Notes: generated from the sequence alone by a model not told the origin. A stretch of 64,000 nucleotides of DNA from Escherichia coli (GCF_003790525.1 NZ_CP033635.1); one strand, 5' to 3'. Positions 2,142-38,668 are shown, counted from the stretch's first letter. Translations and numbers: made by a program.

Positions 2142-3437
2142 TTAATCGCTGTTTTTGGCAATTAAACGTTCCGGGATAACAAAACTGAAACGTGTACCTT
2201 TTCCTACTGTACTCTCAATATTCAGGCGACTTTCGTGATGATTCACCGCATGTTTCACGATCGCTAACCCTAATCCGCTACCACCGGTTTGCCGGGAACG
2301 CGCTTTATCAACGCGATAAAAACGCTCGGTCAGGCGCGGAATATGCTCCGGTGCAATGCCCGGTCCGTTATCTTCAACGCTAAATTCGGCACCATGCGGC
2401 ACTCGCTGCCAGCGTACGGTGATATGCGTGCCTTCCGGCGTATGATTCACGGCGTTATAGACCAGGTTCGAAATCGCACTGCGTAGCTGATCTTCGCTGC
2501 CTGACACCTTGAGGCCGTTATCTATCTCAAAGGTAAATGTCTGTTTTTTCTGACTCAGAGTCTGAGCCTCGCGCTCAACAACGCGCAGCATCATCGGCAC
2601 ATCAACCTTTTCATTGAGCAACTGCGTCGGTGCGGCTTCTATTTTCGACAGCGTCAGCAATTGCTTCACCAGCCCTTCCATCCGCTGTGTCTGCTCGCGC
2701 ATGGTGTGCAACGCTTTTTCACGTACCGCGCCTTCCAGCGGTTGCTCATCCATCATCTCCAGGTAACCCTGTAACACGGTCAATGGCGTACGTAACTCAT
2801 GGCTCACGTTGGCAAAAAAGTTACGCCGCGCCCCTTCCAGTTGATGCATTTGCGTCACATCACGCGCCACCATCAGCAACTGTTTGTGGGTATAAGGCAT
2901 GACGCGAATTTCCAGATGCCGCCCGGTATTGAGCACCAGATTGAGCGGGCGAGAAAAATCACGCGTTTTCAGATATTGCGTAAACTCCGGATAACGAAGC
3001 AGATTAAGGATGTTCTGCCCGTTATCTTCCGGCCAGCGCAAACCAAGAATTTGTTGCGCCAGACCATTACACCAGAAAATACCGCCCTCTTCCGTGGTCA
3101 GCACCACCGCATCAGGCAGCGACTCCGCGCCGCTACGAAAGCGTTTAATCAGATTGCCCAGTTCGCGGCGGCGTTTTTTATTTCGCAACTGCATCTGGTG
3201 TAATCCGTATAGCAGCGGTTCCCAGCTACCACGCCCCGGTGGCGGGGTCATACTACGATCCACCCACAGCCACCATGAAAGGCGCAATAAATTCCAGAAA
3301 TGCCAGATAAGCAGTCCCGTTACCGATGCCAGCAAAAACCAGGGCAGGTAACCAAAAAATGCACCCAGGATGAAAGCCGGGAGGCAGCAAAGTAGCAGCT
3401 CCAGCACCAGCCTTTTCCACGACAGCCGTTCCAGCAC
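2142..3437 (-). CDS. phoR: Phosphate regulon sensor histidine kinase PhoR
   Basis: 431-aa ORF with N-terminal TM segment, H-box ([11 protein letters not shown]) and C-terminal ATPase motifs ([17 protein letters not shown]); directly downstream of phoB. Confidence 0.95.
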
Positions 3438-34657: not shown

Positions 34658-34714
34658 GATTGTCTGCTCCCCTGTCTTGTTATGGGAGCAGTATTCAGGA
34701 ATAAAAACATTCAT

Positions 34715-35272
34715 TAAAAGAATTAGTCGTTATCGCACAGATGATTTTATTCTTAGCAAAAAAACGGCAAAGGAAAGATTAAATATGCAATTACTCCGTT
34801 CTAACAATTGGGAAAATTACTACACTTCATTTTAGTGATGCATAAACAACCACATTACGAGATTTATTACTTCATTATTTCTATCAATATCAATACATAT
34901 AATAAAACTATTATATTCGCATTGTATATATCACTGTATCATTCTCAATCACTCGCATATTACATTCACATAATGTATATAAACAATACTTGTTCACAGA
35001 ACATATTTTTTAAATGCAATTAATTGACAAACTAAATCACATCTAAATACAATGTATAAAACAAAATAACTATACATACCAAACATACAAACACTTAACA
35101 TATGAATTGCATAAAAACATTACCCAGTCGAACCTCCGGGTCTGAAAGCCCTTGCTTTTCAGTTATTAGCAACATTTAACATTTATAAATTAACATCTGG
35201 CTGCGCCAGAGATTACGTCTCTGAGTGCATCGTTGTGCTTGTAGTATAATAAATAAAATGGAGTGTCATTAA
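34715..35272. promoter_or_regulatory. Very AT-rich intergenic region (divergent tauA / yaiS promoters)
   Basis: About 560 bp dominated by A/T with numerous ATA/TAT/CATA repeats; tataat-like -10 near 35243-35248 upstream of yaiS. Confidence 0.5.
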
Positions 35273-35944
35273 GTGGATAAGGTTTTAGATTCAGCCCTCC
35301 TTTCTTCGGCAAATAAAAGAAAGGGTATCCTTGCTATTGGCGCACATCCTGACGATATAGAATTAGGCTGTGGCGCATCGCTTGCTCGTCTTGCGCAAAA
35401 AGGAATTTATATCGCAGCCGTGGTGATGACTACCGGCAACTCTGGCACAGATGGAATAATCGATCGCCATGAAGAATCGCGCAACGCCCTAAAGATATTA
35501 GGGTGCCACCAAACTATTCATCTTAATTTTGCTGACACCCGCGCTCATTTACAGCTCAATGATATGATTTCCGCCCTGGAAGACATCATTAAAAATCAAA
35601 TTCCTTCTGATGTTGAAATCATGCGGGTATATACCATGCATGATGCTGACCGCCATCAGGATCATCTTGCAGTCTATCAAGCCTCAATGGTTGCCTGCCG
35701 AACTATTCCACAAATTCTCGGCTACGAAACCCCAAGTACCTGGCTTTCATTTATGCCTCAGGTTTTTGAATCCGTTAAAGAAGAATATTTCACAGTCAAA
35801 CTTGCTGCATTAAAAAAACATAAAAGCCAGGAACGACGCGATTATATGCGTCATGATCGCCTGCGTGCAGTTGCACAATTTCGCGGGCAACAGGTCAATA
35901 GCGATCTGGGTGAAGGCTTTGTAATTCATAAAATGATTCTTTGA
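35273..35944 (+). CDS. yaiS: LmbE/PIG-L family N-acetylglucosaminyl deacetylase YaiS
   Basis: ORF with GTG start; N-terminal AHPDDIELGCG motif typical of LmbE-like deacetylases; true start uncertain. Confidence 0.8.
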   Translation: MDKVLDSALLSSANKRKGILAIGAHPDDIELGCGASLARLAQKGIYIAAVVMTTGNSGTDGIIDRHEESRNALKILGCHQTIHLNFADTRAHLQLNDMISALEDIIKNQIPSDVEIMRVYTMHDADRHQDHLAVYQASMVACRTIPQILGYETPSTWLSFMPQVFESVKEEYFTVKLAALKKHKSQERRDYMRHDRLRAVAQFRGQQVNSDLGEGFVIHKMIL

Positions 35945-35953
35945 GCAAATTGC

Positions 35954-37150
35954 ATGAAAACCTGGATATTTATCTGTATGGCCGTAGCAATATTGCTATG
36001 GTTCCTGAGTACGTTAAGGCGTAAGCCCAGCCAAAAAAAAGGCTGTATTGACGCCATTATACCTGCTTATAACGAAGGCCCGTGTCTGGCGCAGTCACTG
36101 GATAATCTGCTGCGTAACCCTTATTTTTGCCGGGTAATTTGCGTTAACGACGGCTCCACGGACAATACCGAAGCGGTCATGGCGGAAGTCAAACGCAAAT
36201 GGGGCGACCGCTTTATTGCCGTCACGCAAAAAAATACCGGTAAAGGTGGTGCGCTGATGAATGGCCTCAATTACGCCACCTGCGACCAGGTTTTTTTAAG
36301 TGATGCCGACACCTATGTTCCGCCCGATCAAGACGGAATGGGCTATATGCTGGCAGAAATAGAGCGCGGTGCTGATGCCGTAGGCGGCATTCCCTCTACT
36401 GCGTTGAAAGGCGCGGGTCTGTTACCGCACATCCGCGCGACCGTAAAGTTGCCGATGATTGTTATGAAGCGCACGCTACAGCAGCTCCTGGGCGGCGCAC
36501 CGTTTATTATCAGCGGTGCCTGCGGGATGTTCCGTACTGATGTATTGCGTAAGTTCGGTTTCTCTGATCGTACTAAAGTCGAAGACCTTGATCTCACCTG
36601 GACATTGGTGGCAAACGGCTATCGTATTCGGCAGGCGAATCGCTGCATCGTATACCCACAGGAATGCAACAGCCCGCGTGAGGAATGGCGTCGCTGGCGG
36701 CGTTGGATTGTGGGCTACGCGGTCTGTATGCGCCTGCATAAAAGACTTTTATTTAGCCGCTTCGGTATCTTCAGTATATTTCCTATGCTGTTGGTTGTGC
36801 TTTATGGCGTTGGGATTTATCTCACTACCTGGTTTAATGAATTCATCACCACCGGGCCGCATAGTGTGGTGTTGGCAATGTTTCCGCTTATCTGGGTCGG
36901 CGTAGTTTGTGTTATTGGTGCTTTTAGCGCCTGGTTTCATCGTTGCTGGTTGTTGGTGCCTTTAGCGCCGCTTTCCGTTGTGTATGTATTATTAGCTTAT
37001 GCCATCTGGATTATTTATGGACTTATTGCCTTTTTTACTGGACGCGAACCTCAGCGCGACAAACCCACCCGCTATTCCGCACTGGTGGAAGCGTCAACCG
37101 CTTATTCCCAACCTTCTGTCACAGGAACTGAAAAACTTTCTGAAGCTTAA
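35954..37150 (+). CDS. yaiP: Family 2 glycosyltransferase YaiP, with C-terminal membrane segments
   Basis: 398-aa ORF: GT-A signatures (IIPAYNEGP..., VNDGSTDNT, DAD) followed by several hydrophobic helices. Confidence 0.85.
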   Translation: MKTWIFICMAVAILLWFLSTLRRKPSQKKGCIDAIIPAYNEGPCLAQSLDNLLRNPYFCRVICVNDGSTDNTEAVMAEVKRKWGDRFIAVTQKNTGKGGALMNGLNYATCDQVFLSDADTYVPPDQDGMGYMLAEIERGADAVGGIPSTALKGAGLLPHIRATVKLPMIVMKRTLQQLLGGAPFIISGACGMFRTDVLRKFGFSDRTKVEDLDLTWTLVANGYRIRQANRCIVYPQECNSPREEWRRWRRWIVGYAVCMRLHKRLLFSRFGIFSIFPMLLVVLYGVGIYLTTWFNEFITTGPHSVVLAMFPLIWVGVVCVIGAFSAWFHRCWLLVPLAPLSVVYVLLAYAIWIIYGLIAFFTGREPQRDKPTRYSALVEASTAYSQPSVTGTEKLSEA

Positions 37151-37709
37151 TGTTAAAGAGAAAAATATTCAGATTGCAGACCAGGTAATTATTGATGAAA
37201 CTGCAGGTGAAGTTGTTATCGGCGCGAATACCCATATTTGTCACGGTGCCGTTATTCAGGGTCCGGTAGTGATTGGCGCAAACTGCCTGATAGGTAATTA
37301 TGCGTTTATTCGTCCTGGCACAATAATCAGCAATGGCGTAAAAATTGGTTTCGCCACCGAAATTAAAAATGCGGTTATTGAAGCGGAAGCAACGATTGGT
37401 CCGCAATGTTTTATTGCCGACTCGGTAGTCGCAAACCAGGCATATTTGGGCGCACAAGTACGTACCAGTAATCATCGTCTGGATGAACAGCCCGTGTCTG
37501 TTCGAACTCCAGAGGGAATTATCGCTACCGGATGCGATAAATTAGGTTGTTATATCGGACAGCGTTCACGCCTTGGCGTACAAGTTATTATTTTGCCTGG
37601 GCGAATTATTTCCCCGAACACGCAACTTGGCCCGCGCGTGATTGTAGAACGTAATTTACCTACCGGAACTTATTCACTCCGACAAGAACTTATCCGTACA
37701 GGAGATTAA
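36999..37709 (+). CDS. yaiX: Hexapeptide-repeat (left-handed beta-helix) acyl/acetyltransferase YaiX, apparently intact; start codon uncertain
   Basis: 236-aa ORF with repeated [LIV]G-x-x-x-x-I hexapeptides (VVIGANTHICHGAVIQGPVVIGANCLIGNYAFI...); the 5' 152 nt overlap yaiP in another frame, so the real start may lie downstream. Confidence 0.7.
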   Translation: MPSGLFMDLLPFLLDANLSATNPPAIPHWWKRQPLIPNLLSQELKNFLKLNVKEKNIQIADQVIIDETAGEVVIGANTHICHGAVIQGPVVIGANCLIGNYAFIRPGTIISNGVKIGFATEIKNAVIEAEATIGPQCFIADSVVANQAYLGAQVRTSNHRLDEQPVSVRTPEGIIATGCDKLGCYIGQRSRLGVQVIILPGRIISPNTQLGPRVIVERNLPTGTYSLRQELIRTGD

Positions 37710-37710
37710 A

Positions 37711-38484
37711 ATGATAAAACGGACGTTATTAGCGGCGGCCATTTTTAGCACATTGCCCGCTTATGCCGGGTTAACTTCCATTACCGCGGGCTACGATTTT
37801 ACCGATTATTCTGGCGATCATGGCAATCGTAATTTAGCGTATGCTGAACTGGTGGCGAAAGTTGAAAACGCAACGCTGCTTTTTAATCTTTCCCAGGGGC
37901 GTCGTGATTATGAAACTGAACATTTCAATGCCACTCGCGGTCAGGGTGCGGTCTGGTATAAATGGAATAACTGGCTGACAACCCGAACGGGTATTGCCTT
38001 TGCGGATAATACGCCGGTCTTTGCCCGCCAGGATTTTCGTCAGGATATTAACCTGGCACTGTTGCCAAAAACGCTTTTCACGACCGGTTATCGCTACACT
38101 AAATATTACGATGATGTCGAAGTCGATGCCTGGCAAGGCGGCGTATCCCTCTATACTGGCCCGGTGATCTCCAGCTACCGCTATACCCATTATGACTCCA
38201 GCGATGCAGGTGGTAGTTACAGCAATATGATTTCCGTGCGTCTGAATGACCCGCGCGGCACTGGTTATACGCAACTATGGCTAAGCCGCGGAACAGGCGC
38301 TTACACCTATGACTGGACGCCAGAAACACGCTACGGCAGCATGAAGAGCGTCAGTCTGCAACGTATTCAACCGCTGACTGAGCAACTTAATCTCGGGCTG
38401 ACGGCAGGTAAAGTGTGGTACGACACCCCAACCGATGATTATAACGGTCTGCAACTTGCAGCCCATCTGACCTGGAAATTCTGA
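37711..38484 (+). CDS. yaiO: Outer-membrane beta-barrel protein YaiO
   Basis: 257-aa ORF with signal peptide (MIKRTLLAAAIFSTLPAYA), alternating aromatic/hydrophilic beta-strand pattern, C-terminal ...LTWKF. Confidence 0.85.
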   Translation: MIKRTLLAAAIFSTLPAYAGLTSITAGYDFTDYSGDHGNRNLAYAELVAKVENATLLFNLSQGRRDYETEHFNATRGQGAVWYKWNNWLTTRTGIAFADNTPVFARQDFRQDINLALLPKTLFTTGYRYTKYYDDVEVDAWQGGVSLYTGPVISSYRYTHYDSSDAGGSYSNMISVRLNDPRGTGYTQLWLSRGTGAYTYDWTPETRYGSMKSVSLQRIQPLTEQLNLGLTAGKVWYDTPTDDYNGLQLAAHLTWKF

Positions 38485-38593
38485 TTGCTTCTGCCGCCCG
38501 CTATCCGGGGCGGCCTTCCCTGTCGATTAGGCCCCTCTTTCCTTTTTGTTATCCGACTACATTCACCGGATAAATTTTATTCTCCAGTGTTAT

Positions 38594-38642
38594 ATACTAT
38601 AGGGGGGTATGCATTGACATATAGCATACCCCCCTATAGTAT
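38594..38642 (+). promoter_or_regulatory. Candidate FrmR operator overlapping the frmRAB promoter
   Basis: Perfect 19-bp inverted repeat atactataggggggtatgc (38594-38612) / gcatacccccctatagtat (38624-38642) separated by 11 bp containing TTGACA (38615-38620); G6/C6 tracts as in RcnR/FrmR-family sites. Confidence 0.7.
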
Positions 38643-38668
38643 ATTGCGTGCAGATGATGAGGTGCGAA

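Follow-up and report, generated by a model that had tools for sequence, protein, structure and literature searches.

The yaiS-yaiP-yaiX-yaiO genes of Escherichia coli form a conserved, mobile cassette that may make a glycan derived from N-acetylglucosamine

Four genes of Escherichia coli, yaiS, yaiP, yaiX and yaiO, lie side by side in a 64,000-nucleotide (nt) stretch of an E. coli genome (NZ_CP033635.1, assembly GCF_003790525.1; hereafter the window). The analysis presented here leads me to favour, at somewhat better than an even chance, the view that they are a self-contained mobile cassette making a glycan derived from N-acetylglucosamine (GlcNAc), which is delivered to the cell surface or the medium. 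Strain SMS-3-5 (NC_010498.1, E. coli) is identical to the window (100%), and the orientation is opposite to that of the K-12 map. The four genes are as follows:

yaiS, 35273-35944, plus strand, 223 amino acids (aa), GTG start with GGAG 9 nt 5' of it; PIG-L/LmbE zinc de-N-acetylase, frame open
yaiP, 35954-37150, plus strand, 398 aa; membrane-embedded GT2 synthase
yaiX, open frame 36999-37709 (part of it listed as 37017-37709), plus strand; cytoplasmic left-handed beta-helix protein, putative amino-sugar N-acyltransferase
yaiO, 37711-38484, plus strand, 257 aa; predicted signal peptide and 14-strand outer-membrane beta-barrel

The proposed scheme, in which the genes would be transcribed together and the steps would probably follow the order given here, begins with YaiP, an inner-membrane GT2 enzyme with the fold of the hyaluronan, cellulose and poly-N-acetylglucosamine (PNAG) synthases. 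From a UDP-N-acetylhexosamine, most likely UDP-GlcNAc, it would assemble an oligosaccharide or polysaccharide on the cytoplasmic side of the membrane. YaiS, a cytoplasmic zinc amidase, would strip the N-acetyl group from a GlcNAc unit, which might belong to a precursor, serve as a primer or form the non-reducing terminus of a short product, and the cytoplasmic beta-helix YaiX would put an acyl group, perhaps not acetyl, back on the resulting amine. YaiO would then provide passage of the product through the outer membrane. The combination of a hyaluronan synthase/PgaC-type synthase, cytoplasmic de-N-acetylation, probable re-acylation and a minimal pore matches no characterised exopolysaccharide system that I could identify.

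Judged from their conservation, the four genes are one real unit. A search of the open reading frames (ORFs) of other loci with YaiS, YaiP, YaiX and YaiO of E. coli showed the genes in the order S-P-X-O, separated or overlapping by short distances, in 23 of the 23 loci of sufficient length, and because this order is kept in unrelated contexts the tight packing is not due to chance. Where contigs end early and YaiO is 24-28% identical, the beta-helix gene still lies directly 5' of yaiO. A scan of 100,044 species, one genome each, with invariant YaiP peptide patterns yielded 17 loci, in Escherichia whittamii, Citrobacter (two copies in C. braakii), Superficieibacter, Ignatzschineria, Lysobacter, Stenotrophomonas, Acinetobacter, Pseudomonas viridiflava and proteobacterial metagenome-assembled genomes, the last including Alphaproteobacteria and Sphingomonadaceae. 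YaiO homologues of 24-50% identity in public assemblies reveal the same arrangement in Salmonella and on metagenomic contigs. Beyond the close enterics, identity to the E. coli proteins is 52-66% for YaiP, 45-63% for YaiX, 41-52% for YaiS and 26-50% for YaiO, and clustering of the flanking ORFs found no further gene common to the lineages; the linkage of the four genes extends across bacterial classes. Within E. coli the module is present, at 80% query coverage or more, in 4800 of 5426 complete genomes (about 88%), and 493 (about 9%) have no match. A preliminary description of this DNA, made from the sequence alone, had proposed a four-gene module, and the kept order bears it out.

The distribution of the cassette also indicates that it is horizontally mobile. 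Its GC content follows that of the host, ranging between 0.29 (Acinetobacter) and 0.67 (Stenotrophomonas), and in enterics it is below that of the flanks, with an AT-rich region in front of the cassette. In about 560 complete E. coli genomes the match to the cassette is at just 80-90% DNA identity, and in those sampled it lies elsewhere on the chromosome, in an island with ibrAB, a gene for a TonB-dependent receptor and fragments of insertion sequences (IS). An example of this second chromosomal site is that of E. coli ZH193 (NZ_CP014497.1, 2245025-2248231), where ibrA/ibrB, the TonB-dependent receptor gene and IS66/IS4 remnants are found. In cassettes of the ZH193 type YaiS is 62% identical to that of the window whereas YaiP, YaiX and YaiO are 94-96% identical, which implies a recombination breakpoint between yaiS and yaiP. 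Furthermore, when two other tauA-linked loci were compared with the window, the synonymous divergence (dS) was about 0.30 for yaiS and 0.05-0.09 for the neighbouring yaiP. From these divergences, yaiS at the 5' end of the operon, perhaps along with its leader, appears to have been swapped by recombination independently of the remainder.

Plasmids carry the cassette as well. A tblastn search of PLSDB with YaiP returned 50 records, 34 of them typed as conjugative and a few, larger than 1 Mb, evidently chromosomes. The two inspected in detail are both conjugative IncF plasmids with all four genes: NZ_AP024124.1 (127.6 kb, from cattle) also encodes CNF2 (cytotoxic necrotizing factor), and NZ_CP116045.1 (88.7 kb, from a human isolate of Shiga toxin-producing E. 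coli) has the cassette beside ccdAB and an integrase gene. The Salmonella locus shares this ccdAB-integrase neighbourhood, with ibrAB-like, YadA-anchor and PapB-like genes upstream. Horizontal acquisition, which the preliminary description had suggested, is thus supported by sporadic taxonomy, unrelated flanks, a second E. coli chromosomal site and carriage on conjugative plasmids. Its occurrence on IncF plasmids beside virulence genes, cnf2 for example, suggests that the cassette confers a transferable glycan, on the surface or secreted, that is of value ecologically or in interaction with a host.

The families of the four proteins had been named beforehand as PIG-L, GT2, hexapeptide and barrel, and Pfam agrees, with all scores above the curated cut-offs: PIG-L (PF02585) 89.2 bits (cut-off 28.2), Glycos_transf_2 98 bits, Hexapep (PF00132) 63.5 bits (27) and YaiO (PF19413) 91 bits (23.9). 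The predicted layout of four same-strand genes also agrees with the ORF coordinates, which give a 9-bp gap between yaiS and yaiP, an overlap of yaiX with yaiP and a 1-bp gap between yaiX and yaiO. In an NCBIfam profile search with the four proteins the YaiO family (TIGR04390, 184 bits) was the only one to pass, and no other equivalog threshold was reached. A role in anti-phage defence was considered and dropped, PADLOC models giving zero matches to the four cassette proteins.

YaiP carries most of the functional argument. Its AlphaFold2 model (mean predicted local distance difference test, pLDDT, 82; predicted template modelling score 0.81) has one N-terminal transmembrane (TM) helix, a cytoplasmic GT-A domain, an amphipathic interface helix bearing RWRRW and about three C-terminal TM helices, in keeping with the membrane-embedded C-terminal half expected of it. 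The model superposes on hyaluronan and cellulose synthases, with about 15% sequence identity to such structure matches, and YaiP thus has the BcsA/hyaluronan synthase fold and D,D,D,QxxRW-type motifs of an inner-membrane GT2 synthase. The best family model is PgaC/IcaA (TIGR03937; 100.7 bits, E 8e-29, cut-off 422.3), the next best scoring 43 bits, and BLASTP aligns YaiP with E. coli PgaC at 28% identity over 241 aa of the glycosyltransferase domain, with NDGSTD, DxD, ED and RWRRW/QRLRW lined up. The motifs D, DxD, ED and (R)xxRW are invariant in 33 aligned homologues, as is, in 33 of 33, a cytoplasmic tail, GREPxRDKPTRY, that follows the last TM helix (residues 363-374, window 37040-37075). 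The RxxxR spacing of this tail resembles that of the PilZ motif for cyclic di-GMP (c-di-GMP). Compared with processive GT2 synthases such as class I hyaluronan synthase, BcsA, chitin synthase and NodC, YaiP is smaller (398 aa, about four TM helices), has R where they have Q as the first motif residue, lacks a PilZ domain and possesses the additional invariant tail.

YaiS belongs to the PIG-L/LmbE family, as the motif AHPDDIELGCG had led the preliminary description to say, and it retains the zinc-binding and catalytic motifs HPDD, HxDH and HKSQ. Its alignment with diacetylchitobiose deacetylase (Protein Data Bank entry 8bgn, E 3e-12) spans the full length and includes all three motifs, and other LmbE proteins align with it too; against the BshB1 profile the match covers positions 4-223 of 226 (80 bits, cut-off 182.5). 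YaiS has no signal peptide, and its nearest solved relatives, diacetylchitobiose deacetylase and BshB1, act on GlcNAc glycosides in the cytoplasm. Its GTG/TTG start and N-terminal DKVL are kept in Citrobacter. Although YaiS shares the Pfam family, the motifs and a full-length alignment with the LmbE/PIG-L deacetylases (diacetylchitobiose deacetylase, BshB1, MshB and PIG-L), it falls below every equivalog cut-off, and in the genome it is accompanied by genes for a GT2 synthase and an outer-membrane barrel instead of thiol-cofactor or chitin-catabolic genes.

YaiX had been described beforehand as a hexapeptide acyl- or acetyltransferase with O-acetylation in mind. The hexapeptide beta-helix stands, and the O-acetyltransferase part does not: a WbbJ-type model reaches 31 bits as against 130 bits for the C-terminal N-acetyltransferase domain of archaeal GlmU, itself below threshold. 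The nearest relatives are amino-sugar N-acetyltransferase beta-helices, with an E value of 6e-23 to the C-terminal GlcN-1-P/GalN-1-P N-acetyltransferase beta-helix of ST0452 from Sulfolobus (5z09). The equivalents of ST0452 Asn331, Arg333 and Asp335 are conserved in YaiX.

YaiO fits its own family well (TIGR04390, 183.9 bits against 32), and its AlphaFold2 model (mean pLDDT 94) shows a barrel of 14 strands preceded by a signal peptide, which upholds the outer-membrane assignment made beforehand. The closest folds are CymA, OmpG and FadL, monomeric oligosaccharide channels being nearest. From such 14-strand barrels YaiO differs in sequence (7-11% identity), in lacking the FadL hatch and in belonging to a separate family. 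An exhaustive phmmer search of 1.84 billion (1.84e9) representative proteins found 117 relatives, the full-length ones being stand-alone proteins of about 250-295 aa. Relatives fused to TPR domains, which the family description mentions, were absent from the full-length phmmer matches, and a profile search added nothing.

The preliminary description had likened the module to pga, and this comparison holds for the synthase (YaiP is 28% identical to PgaC and has PgaC/IcaA as its best model), whereas YaiS, YaiX and YaiO are not pga-like. PgaABCD and IcaADBC, which make PNAG, share with the cassette a membrane GT2 synthase, a de-N-acetylase and an outer-membrane barrel in one four-gene operon. Membership of this system was nevertheless rejected, as none of its four defining features was found. 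The score of YaiP against the PgaC equivalog is 100.7 bits where 422.3 is required. PgaD, the small inner-membrane partner that depends on c-di-GMP, has no counterpart, there being no small two-TM protein among the four cassette genes. PgaB is a periplasmic CE4 deacetylase, whereas the sole deacetylase of the cassette, YaiS, is a cytoplasmic PIG-L/LmbE protein without a signal peptide. PgaA is a porin with an N-terminal TPR domain, whereas YaiO has 14 strands, no TPR region and, by BLASTP, no similarity to PgaA. Moreover, the cassette has in YaiX a cytoplasmic beta-helix transferase that is additional to the PgaABCD set.

Several observations weigh against a glycan-synthesis role of the kind proposed. 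Characterised Gram-negative synthase-dependent systems possess both a TPR scaffold and a c-di-GMP receptor, and their tailoring enzymes are periplasmic. In contrast, no TPR or other periplasmic protein is encoded in any of the 23 loci, although the barrel is present, and the E. coli cassette has no dedicated c-di-GMP receptor; a PilZ gene lies beside the cassette in three loci of a divergent subgroup. A polymer that is extruded during its synthesis is out of reach for enzymes of the cytoplasm. YaiS and YaiX would therefore work on a precursor or primer, or on a product that is still short, which argues against a long polymer; the chain could be of various lengths, and both a glycolipid head group and a Nod-factor-like acylated oligosaccharide become credible. 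For YaiX, the position of ST0452 His308, which like GlmU His363 is the catalytic histidine of ST0452/GlmU-type enzymes, is Pro within an invariant GPQC, and YaiX is therefore a putative acyltransferase by its fold. Its other Pfam beta-helix matches, to the C-terminal domains of eIF2B-epsilon, GlgC and GMPPB, are below their cut-offs, and those domains are not known to be catalytic. The fold of YaiO gives neither a direction of transport nor proof of a channel, so that outward passage is the presumed direction here. YaiP also scores above the Pfam cut-off for GT21 (ceramide glucosyltransferase; 32.7 bits against 21.7), as it does for Glyco_tranf_2_3 and Glyco_trans_2_3. Finally, full-text searches of one literature library found no functional study of the yaiSPXO operon. 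With cytoplasmic tailoring, no scaffold and a small 14-strand pore, the accessory logic of YaiSPXO is unlike that of all characterised Gram-negative synthase-dependent systems.

The GT21 match raises the question of whether the product is a glycolipid, an explanation that I consider doubtful. YaiP would place GlcNAc on a membrane lipid (e.g. diacylglycerol), YaiS would deacetylate it, YaiX would N-acylate it, and YaiO, which is of FadL size, would insert or expose the lipid in the outer membrane. GT21 enzymes and monoglycosyl-diacylglycerol synthases do transfer sugar to a membrane lipid, and the (R)xxRW form of the YaiP motif, with R in first position, is seen in glucosylceramide synthase. 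The small number of TM helices in YaiP (about four), the cytoplasmic location of YaiS and YaiX, which fits a head group anchored by lipid in the inner leaflet, and the absence of a periplasmic scaffold from the cassette would also be explained, and LpxC and LpxD follow the same logic of deacetylation and then N-acylation. However, PgaC/IcaA scores 100.7 bits as against 43 bits or less for any lipid- or polyprenol-glycosyltransferase model, YaiO has no FadL N-terminal hatch and is nearest to CymA, a sugar channel, and the cassette contains no flippase or Lpt-like component.

The presence of ArnC, GtrB and DPMS among the sequence and fold matches likewise bears on a role in modifying an existing envelope glycan. 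YaiP would then charge undecaprenyl phosphate with an amino sugar as ArnC and GtrB do, YaiS would remove the acyl group like ArnD, and the sugar would decorate lipopolysaccharide, enterobacterial common antigen or another polymer. In the Arn pathway the sugar is indeed transferred in N-acylated form and the acyl group then removed at the cytoplasmic face. I regard this explanation as very improbable, given that the cassette has neither a flippase nor a periplasmic transferase of the GtrC/ArnT type and that pathways of this kind have no use for an outer-membrane barrel.

Within the favoured GlcNAc-glycan model there is a more specific version, in which the cassette would be a non-homologous analogue of NodABC. 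YaiP would make short GlcNAc oligomers in the cytoplasm, YaiS would deacetylate the non-reducing end, YaiX would add a different acyl group to the resulting amine and YaiO would let the molecule out as a signal, either diffusible or on the surface. I think this version unlikely, and since it is a sub-case of the general model its likelihood is contained in that of the latter and not added to it. In rhizobial Nod-factor synthesis a GT2 N-acetylhexosamine synthase, a de-N-acetylase and an N-acyltransferase all work in the cytoplasm, and the cassette encodes the same three chemical steps together, with a YaiP of NodC size and all three proteins acting in the cytoplasm; the likeness is one of logic. 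The closest solved relative of YaiS deacetylates the non-reducing GlcNAc of chitobiose, which can be likened to the NodABC step. The NodABC equivalogs themselves are absent: YaiP scores 29.5 bits against the NodC model (TIGR04242, cut-off 550), YaiS has the LmbE fold where NodB is CE4, and YaiX is a beta-helix, unlike NodA. The cassette also lacks the NodIJ transporter and has an outer-membrane barrel instead. If this version were true, enteric, plant-associated and opportunistic Proteobacteria, together with some E. coli virulence plasmids, would carry an unrecognised class of molecules resembling acylated chitooligosaccharides.

By organisation, the nearest published analogue is xagABCD of Xanthomonas, a four-gene operon with the GT2 gene second that is required for a biofilm polysaccharide not yet characterised and stays repressed as long as c-di-GMP has not risen (PMC3528676, PMC3609779); the comparison is with the published description. 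Among the 100,044 species representatives, no Xanthomonas genome matched the invariant YaiP patterns, yet Stenotrophomonas and Lysobacter did, and orthology with xagABCD is therefore unlikely.

Pairwise comparison with SMS-3-5 among E. coli gives ratios of nonsynonymous to synonymous divergence (dN/dS) of 0.03-0.24 for all four genes, and in 11 of 11 sampled genomes other than K-12 the four proteins align over their full length without stops. By these measures the cassette is under purifying selection; an operon found in about 88% of complete E. coli genomes is being maintained, yet it has no known product. K-12 is different. In K-12 MC4100 an IS2 element splits yaiX after about residue 58, a point equivalent to window position ~37301, whereas the window has an open frame, just as the preliminary description had it. 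Furthermore, codon 186 of K-12 yaiS is changed from CAG to TAG (amber; window 35828-35830, positions 3114-3116 of K-12 locus L002), which hits the Gln of HKSQ and removes the last 38 residues, leaving the 185 aa annotated in K-12. The expectation that the module is intact here and broken in the laboratory reference is thus met by sequence comparison, with four open frames on one side and two lesions on the other. A 55-mer with the TAG allele occurs in 355 complete genomes, and among the matches listed (40) all are K-12-type laboratory strains; the version with CAG is found exactly in 2221 genomes, the others varying at nearby single-nucleotide polymorphisms. Hosts carrying supE44 would read the amber codon as Gln, the wild-type residue. 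Because there are two independent knock-outs in K-12, screens in that background, including single-gene deletion collections, cannot reveal the function of the cassette. This double breakage may explain why its function has escaped notice, and it makes a wild strain such as SMS-3-5 the right starting point.

Silencing offers a further perspective on the same question. The following features lie upstream of yaiS:

tauA-yaiS intergenic leader, 34658-35272 (34715-35272 in the preliminary description), no strand assigned; contains divergent promoters, bounds taken from the RefSeq tauA start
sigma-70 promoter-like site TTGACA-18-TACAAT, 35024-35053, plus strand; 5' of yaiS, 11 of 12 matches in the scan, implying a 5' untranslated region (UTR) of about 220 nt
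divergent tauA promoter-like site TTGAGA-16-TACAAT, 34921-34948, minus strand; from the promoter scan

The GC content of the leader is 0.235-0.275 (200-nt windows, 34700-35199) compared with 0.51-0.62 in tauABC and 0.41-0.59 in the cassette, and the region upstream of the cassette is likewise AT-rich at other enteric loci. The AT-rich leader of about 560 bp described beforehand is thus real, its intergenic extent being 560-615 bp according to the bounds used. The suggested association with H-NS agrees with published K-12 data, in which the yaiS/tauA spacer is listed as a 'promoter island' associated with H-NS (PMC3661553) and carries an 'HNS' flag in genomic SELEX (systematic evolution of ligands by exponential enrichment; PMC3946193). 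By its leader GC of 0.24-0.28, its patchy mobile distribution and the H-NS binding in the K-12 literature, the locus resembles other H-NS-silenced horizontal loci, and the E. coli operon would be held silent by H-NS on the AT-rich leader. The same SELEX study gives the TTGACA/TACAAT hexamers as a constitutive RpoD promoter of yaiS and the TTGAGA/TACAAT hexamers as that of tauABCD (PMC3946193). The promoter and terminator scans as a whole showed no enrichment over shuffled sequences, and just these two sites, which match published SELEX promoters, were used. The leader matched no Rfam family at E<=1, contains no repeats and is not conserved in sequence outside Escherichia. On these three grounds a conserved RNA element or a riboswitch within the 5' UTR (about 220 nt) was dropped from consideration.

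A silent operon that is broken in K-12 could be a cryptic relic, that is, a silenced horizontal acquisition that is now without function in E. coli and decaying elsewhere as it has in K-12. The published H-NS binding and the two K-12 lesions point in that direction, as do the 493 of 5426 genomes without a match, several YaiO clusters of shortened proteins and strain 63-2, where an IS1-mediated deletion has left the last 96 bp of yaiO. I nevertheless find a relic improbable. The dN/dS values are those of four genes kept by selection, the 11 wild genomes sampled are all intact, the amber allele is confined to the 355 genomes characterised above, the cassette is kept on conjugative virulence plasmids, and YaiP remains 60-66% identical across bacterial classes.

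Regulation may differ between lineages. In the divergent subgroup with YaiO 24-28% identical (three loci), a gene for a PilZ-domain protein, genes for GerE-type response regulators and a hybrid kinase gene adjoin the cassette; these neighbours hint at c-di-GMP or two-component control, which would have no counterpart in the E. coli copy. At one other locus an MvaT/H-NS-like gene adjoins the cassette. An antisense RNA inside yaiP has been reported and used as a control (PMC4666370).

Along the window, tauC, tauB and tauA (minus strand) are followed by the AT-rich leader, then by yaiS, yaiP, yaiX and yaiO (plus strand) and then by frmR-frmA-fghA. Four further features deserve mention, the first two of which concern annotation:

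ykiC-like ORF of 39 codons, 35810-35929, minus strand; antisense, wholly within the 3' part of yaiS, annotated in RefSeq as a hypothetical protein and not counted in the cassette
yaiX start candidates ATG 36999, ATG 37017 and the RefSeq CTG 37128, plus strand; from start-codon inspection
GC-rich hairpin GCCGCCC-7 nt-GGGCGGC, 38493-38514, plus strand; 9 nt 3' of the yaiO stop, without a T-run, read from the sequence
palindrome, 38577-38660, around a TTGACA-17-TAGTAT promoter 5' of frmR

YkiC is a small K-12 protein of 39 aa that has been placed 'between yaiP and yaiS' (PMC6001520). It lies antisense within the 3' end of yaiS, a gene that is intact in wild strains. The RefSeq annotation pipeline (PGAP) labels yaiS a 'pseudogene missing C-terminus' in SMS-3-5 and other strains, and this flag occurs only in annotations that also hold the antisense ykiC-like ORF, whereas earlier annotations of equivalent sequences have an intact YaiS of 223 aa. 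A real lesion of yaiS in SMS-3-5 was considered and dropped, as the frame is open over its full length; since the frame is open and older annotations are intact, the pseudogene flag is an annotation artefact, and current RefSeq wrongly makes a pseudogene of an intact yaiS in many strains.

The start of yaiX may also need revision. At the RefSeq start, CTG 37128, AGGA lies just 1 nt upstream, and all in-frame ATG, GTG and TTG codons are farther upstream (36999, 37017 and 37026). Because a WWK segment 5' of 37128 is common to some homologues, a start at ATG 37017 or 36999 is favoured. YaiX may thus have a true length of about 230 aa, with an overlap of about 134 nt with yaiP; the overlap is 23 nt with the RefSeq start and up to 152 nt with the longest ORF.

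Earlier reports touch on individual genes. yaiS is among the thermotolerance genes of a K-12 knockout screen (PMC5828445), and in the strain of that screen yaiS was already cut short. In a screen of uropathogenic E. coli, the expression of type 1 fimbriae was changed when a transposon had inserted into yaiO (PMC6727828). In addition, the main use of yaiO in the literature is as an 'orphan' PCR marker for E. coli (PMC4453288). Homologues of YaiO that are 60-81% identical occur in Citrobacter, and about 9% of complete E. coli genomes lack the module, both of which bear on the use of yaiO as an E. coli-specific target.

Downstream of the cassette, the hairpin at 38493-38514 may mark the end of the transcription unit, judging from its position and form; the terminator scan of the window did not call it. 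The frmR promoter and operator come after this hairpin. The palindrome there is long and perfect (ATACTATAGGGGGGTATGC ... GCATACCCCCCTATAGTAT), had spurious microRNA matches as its only hits in Rfam, and is presumably the FrmR operator.

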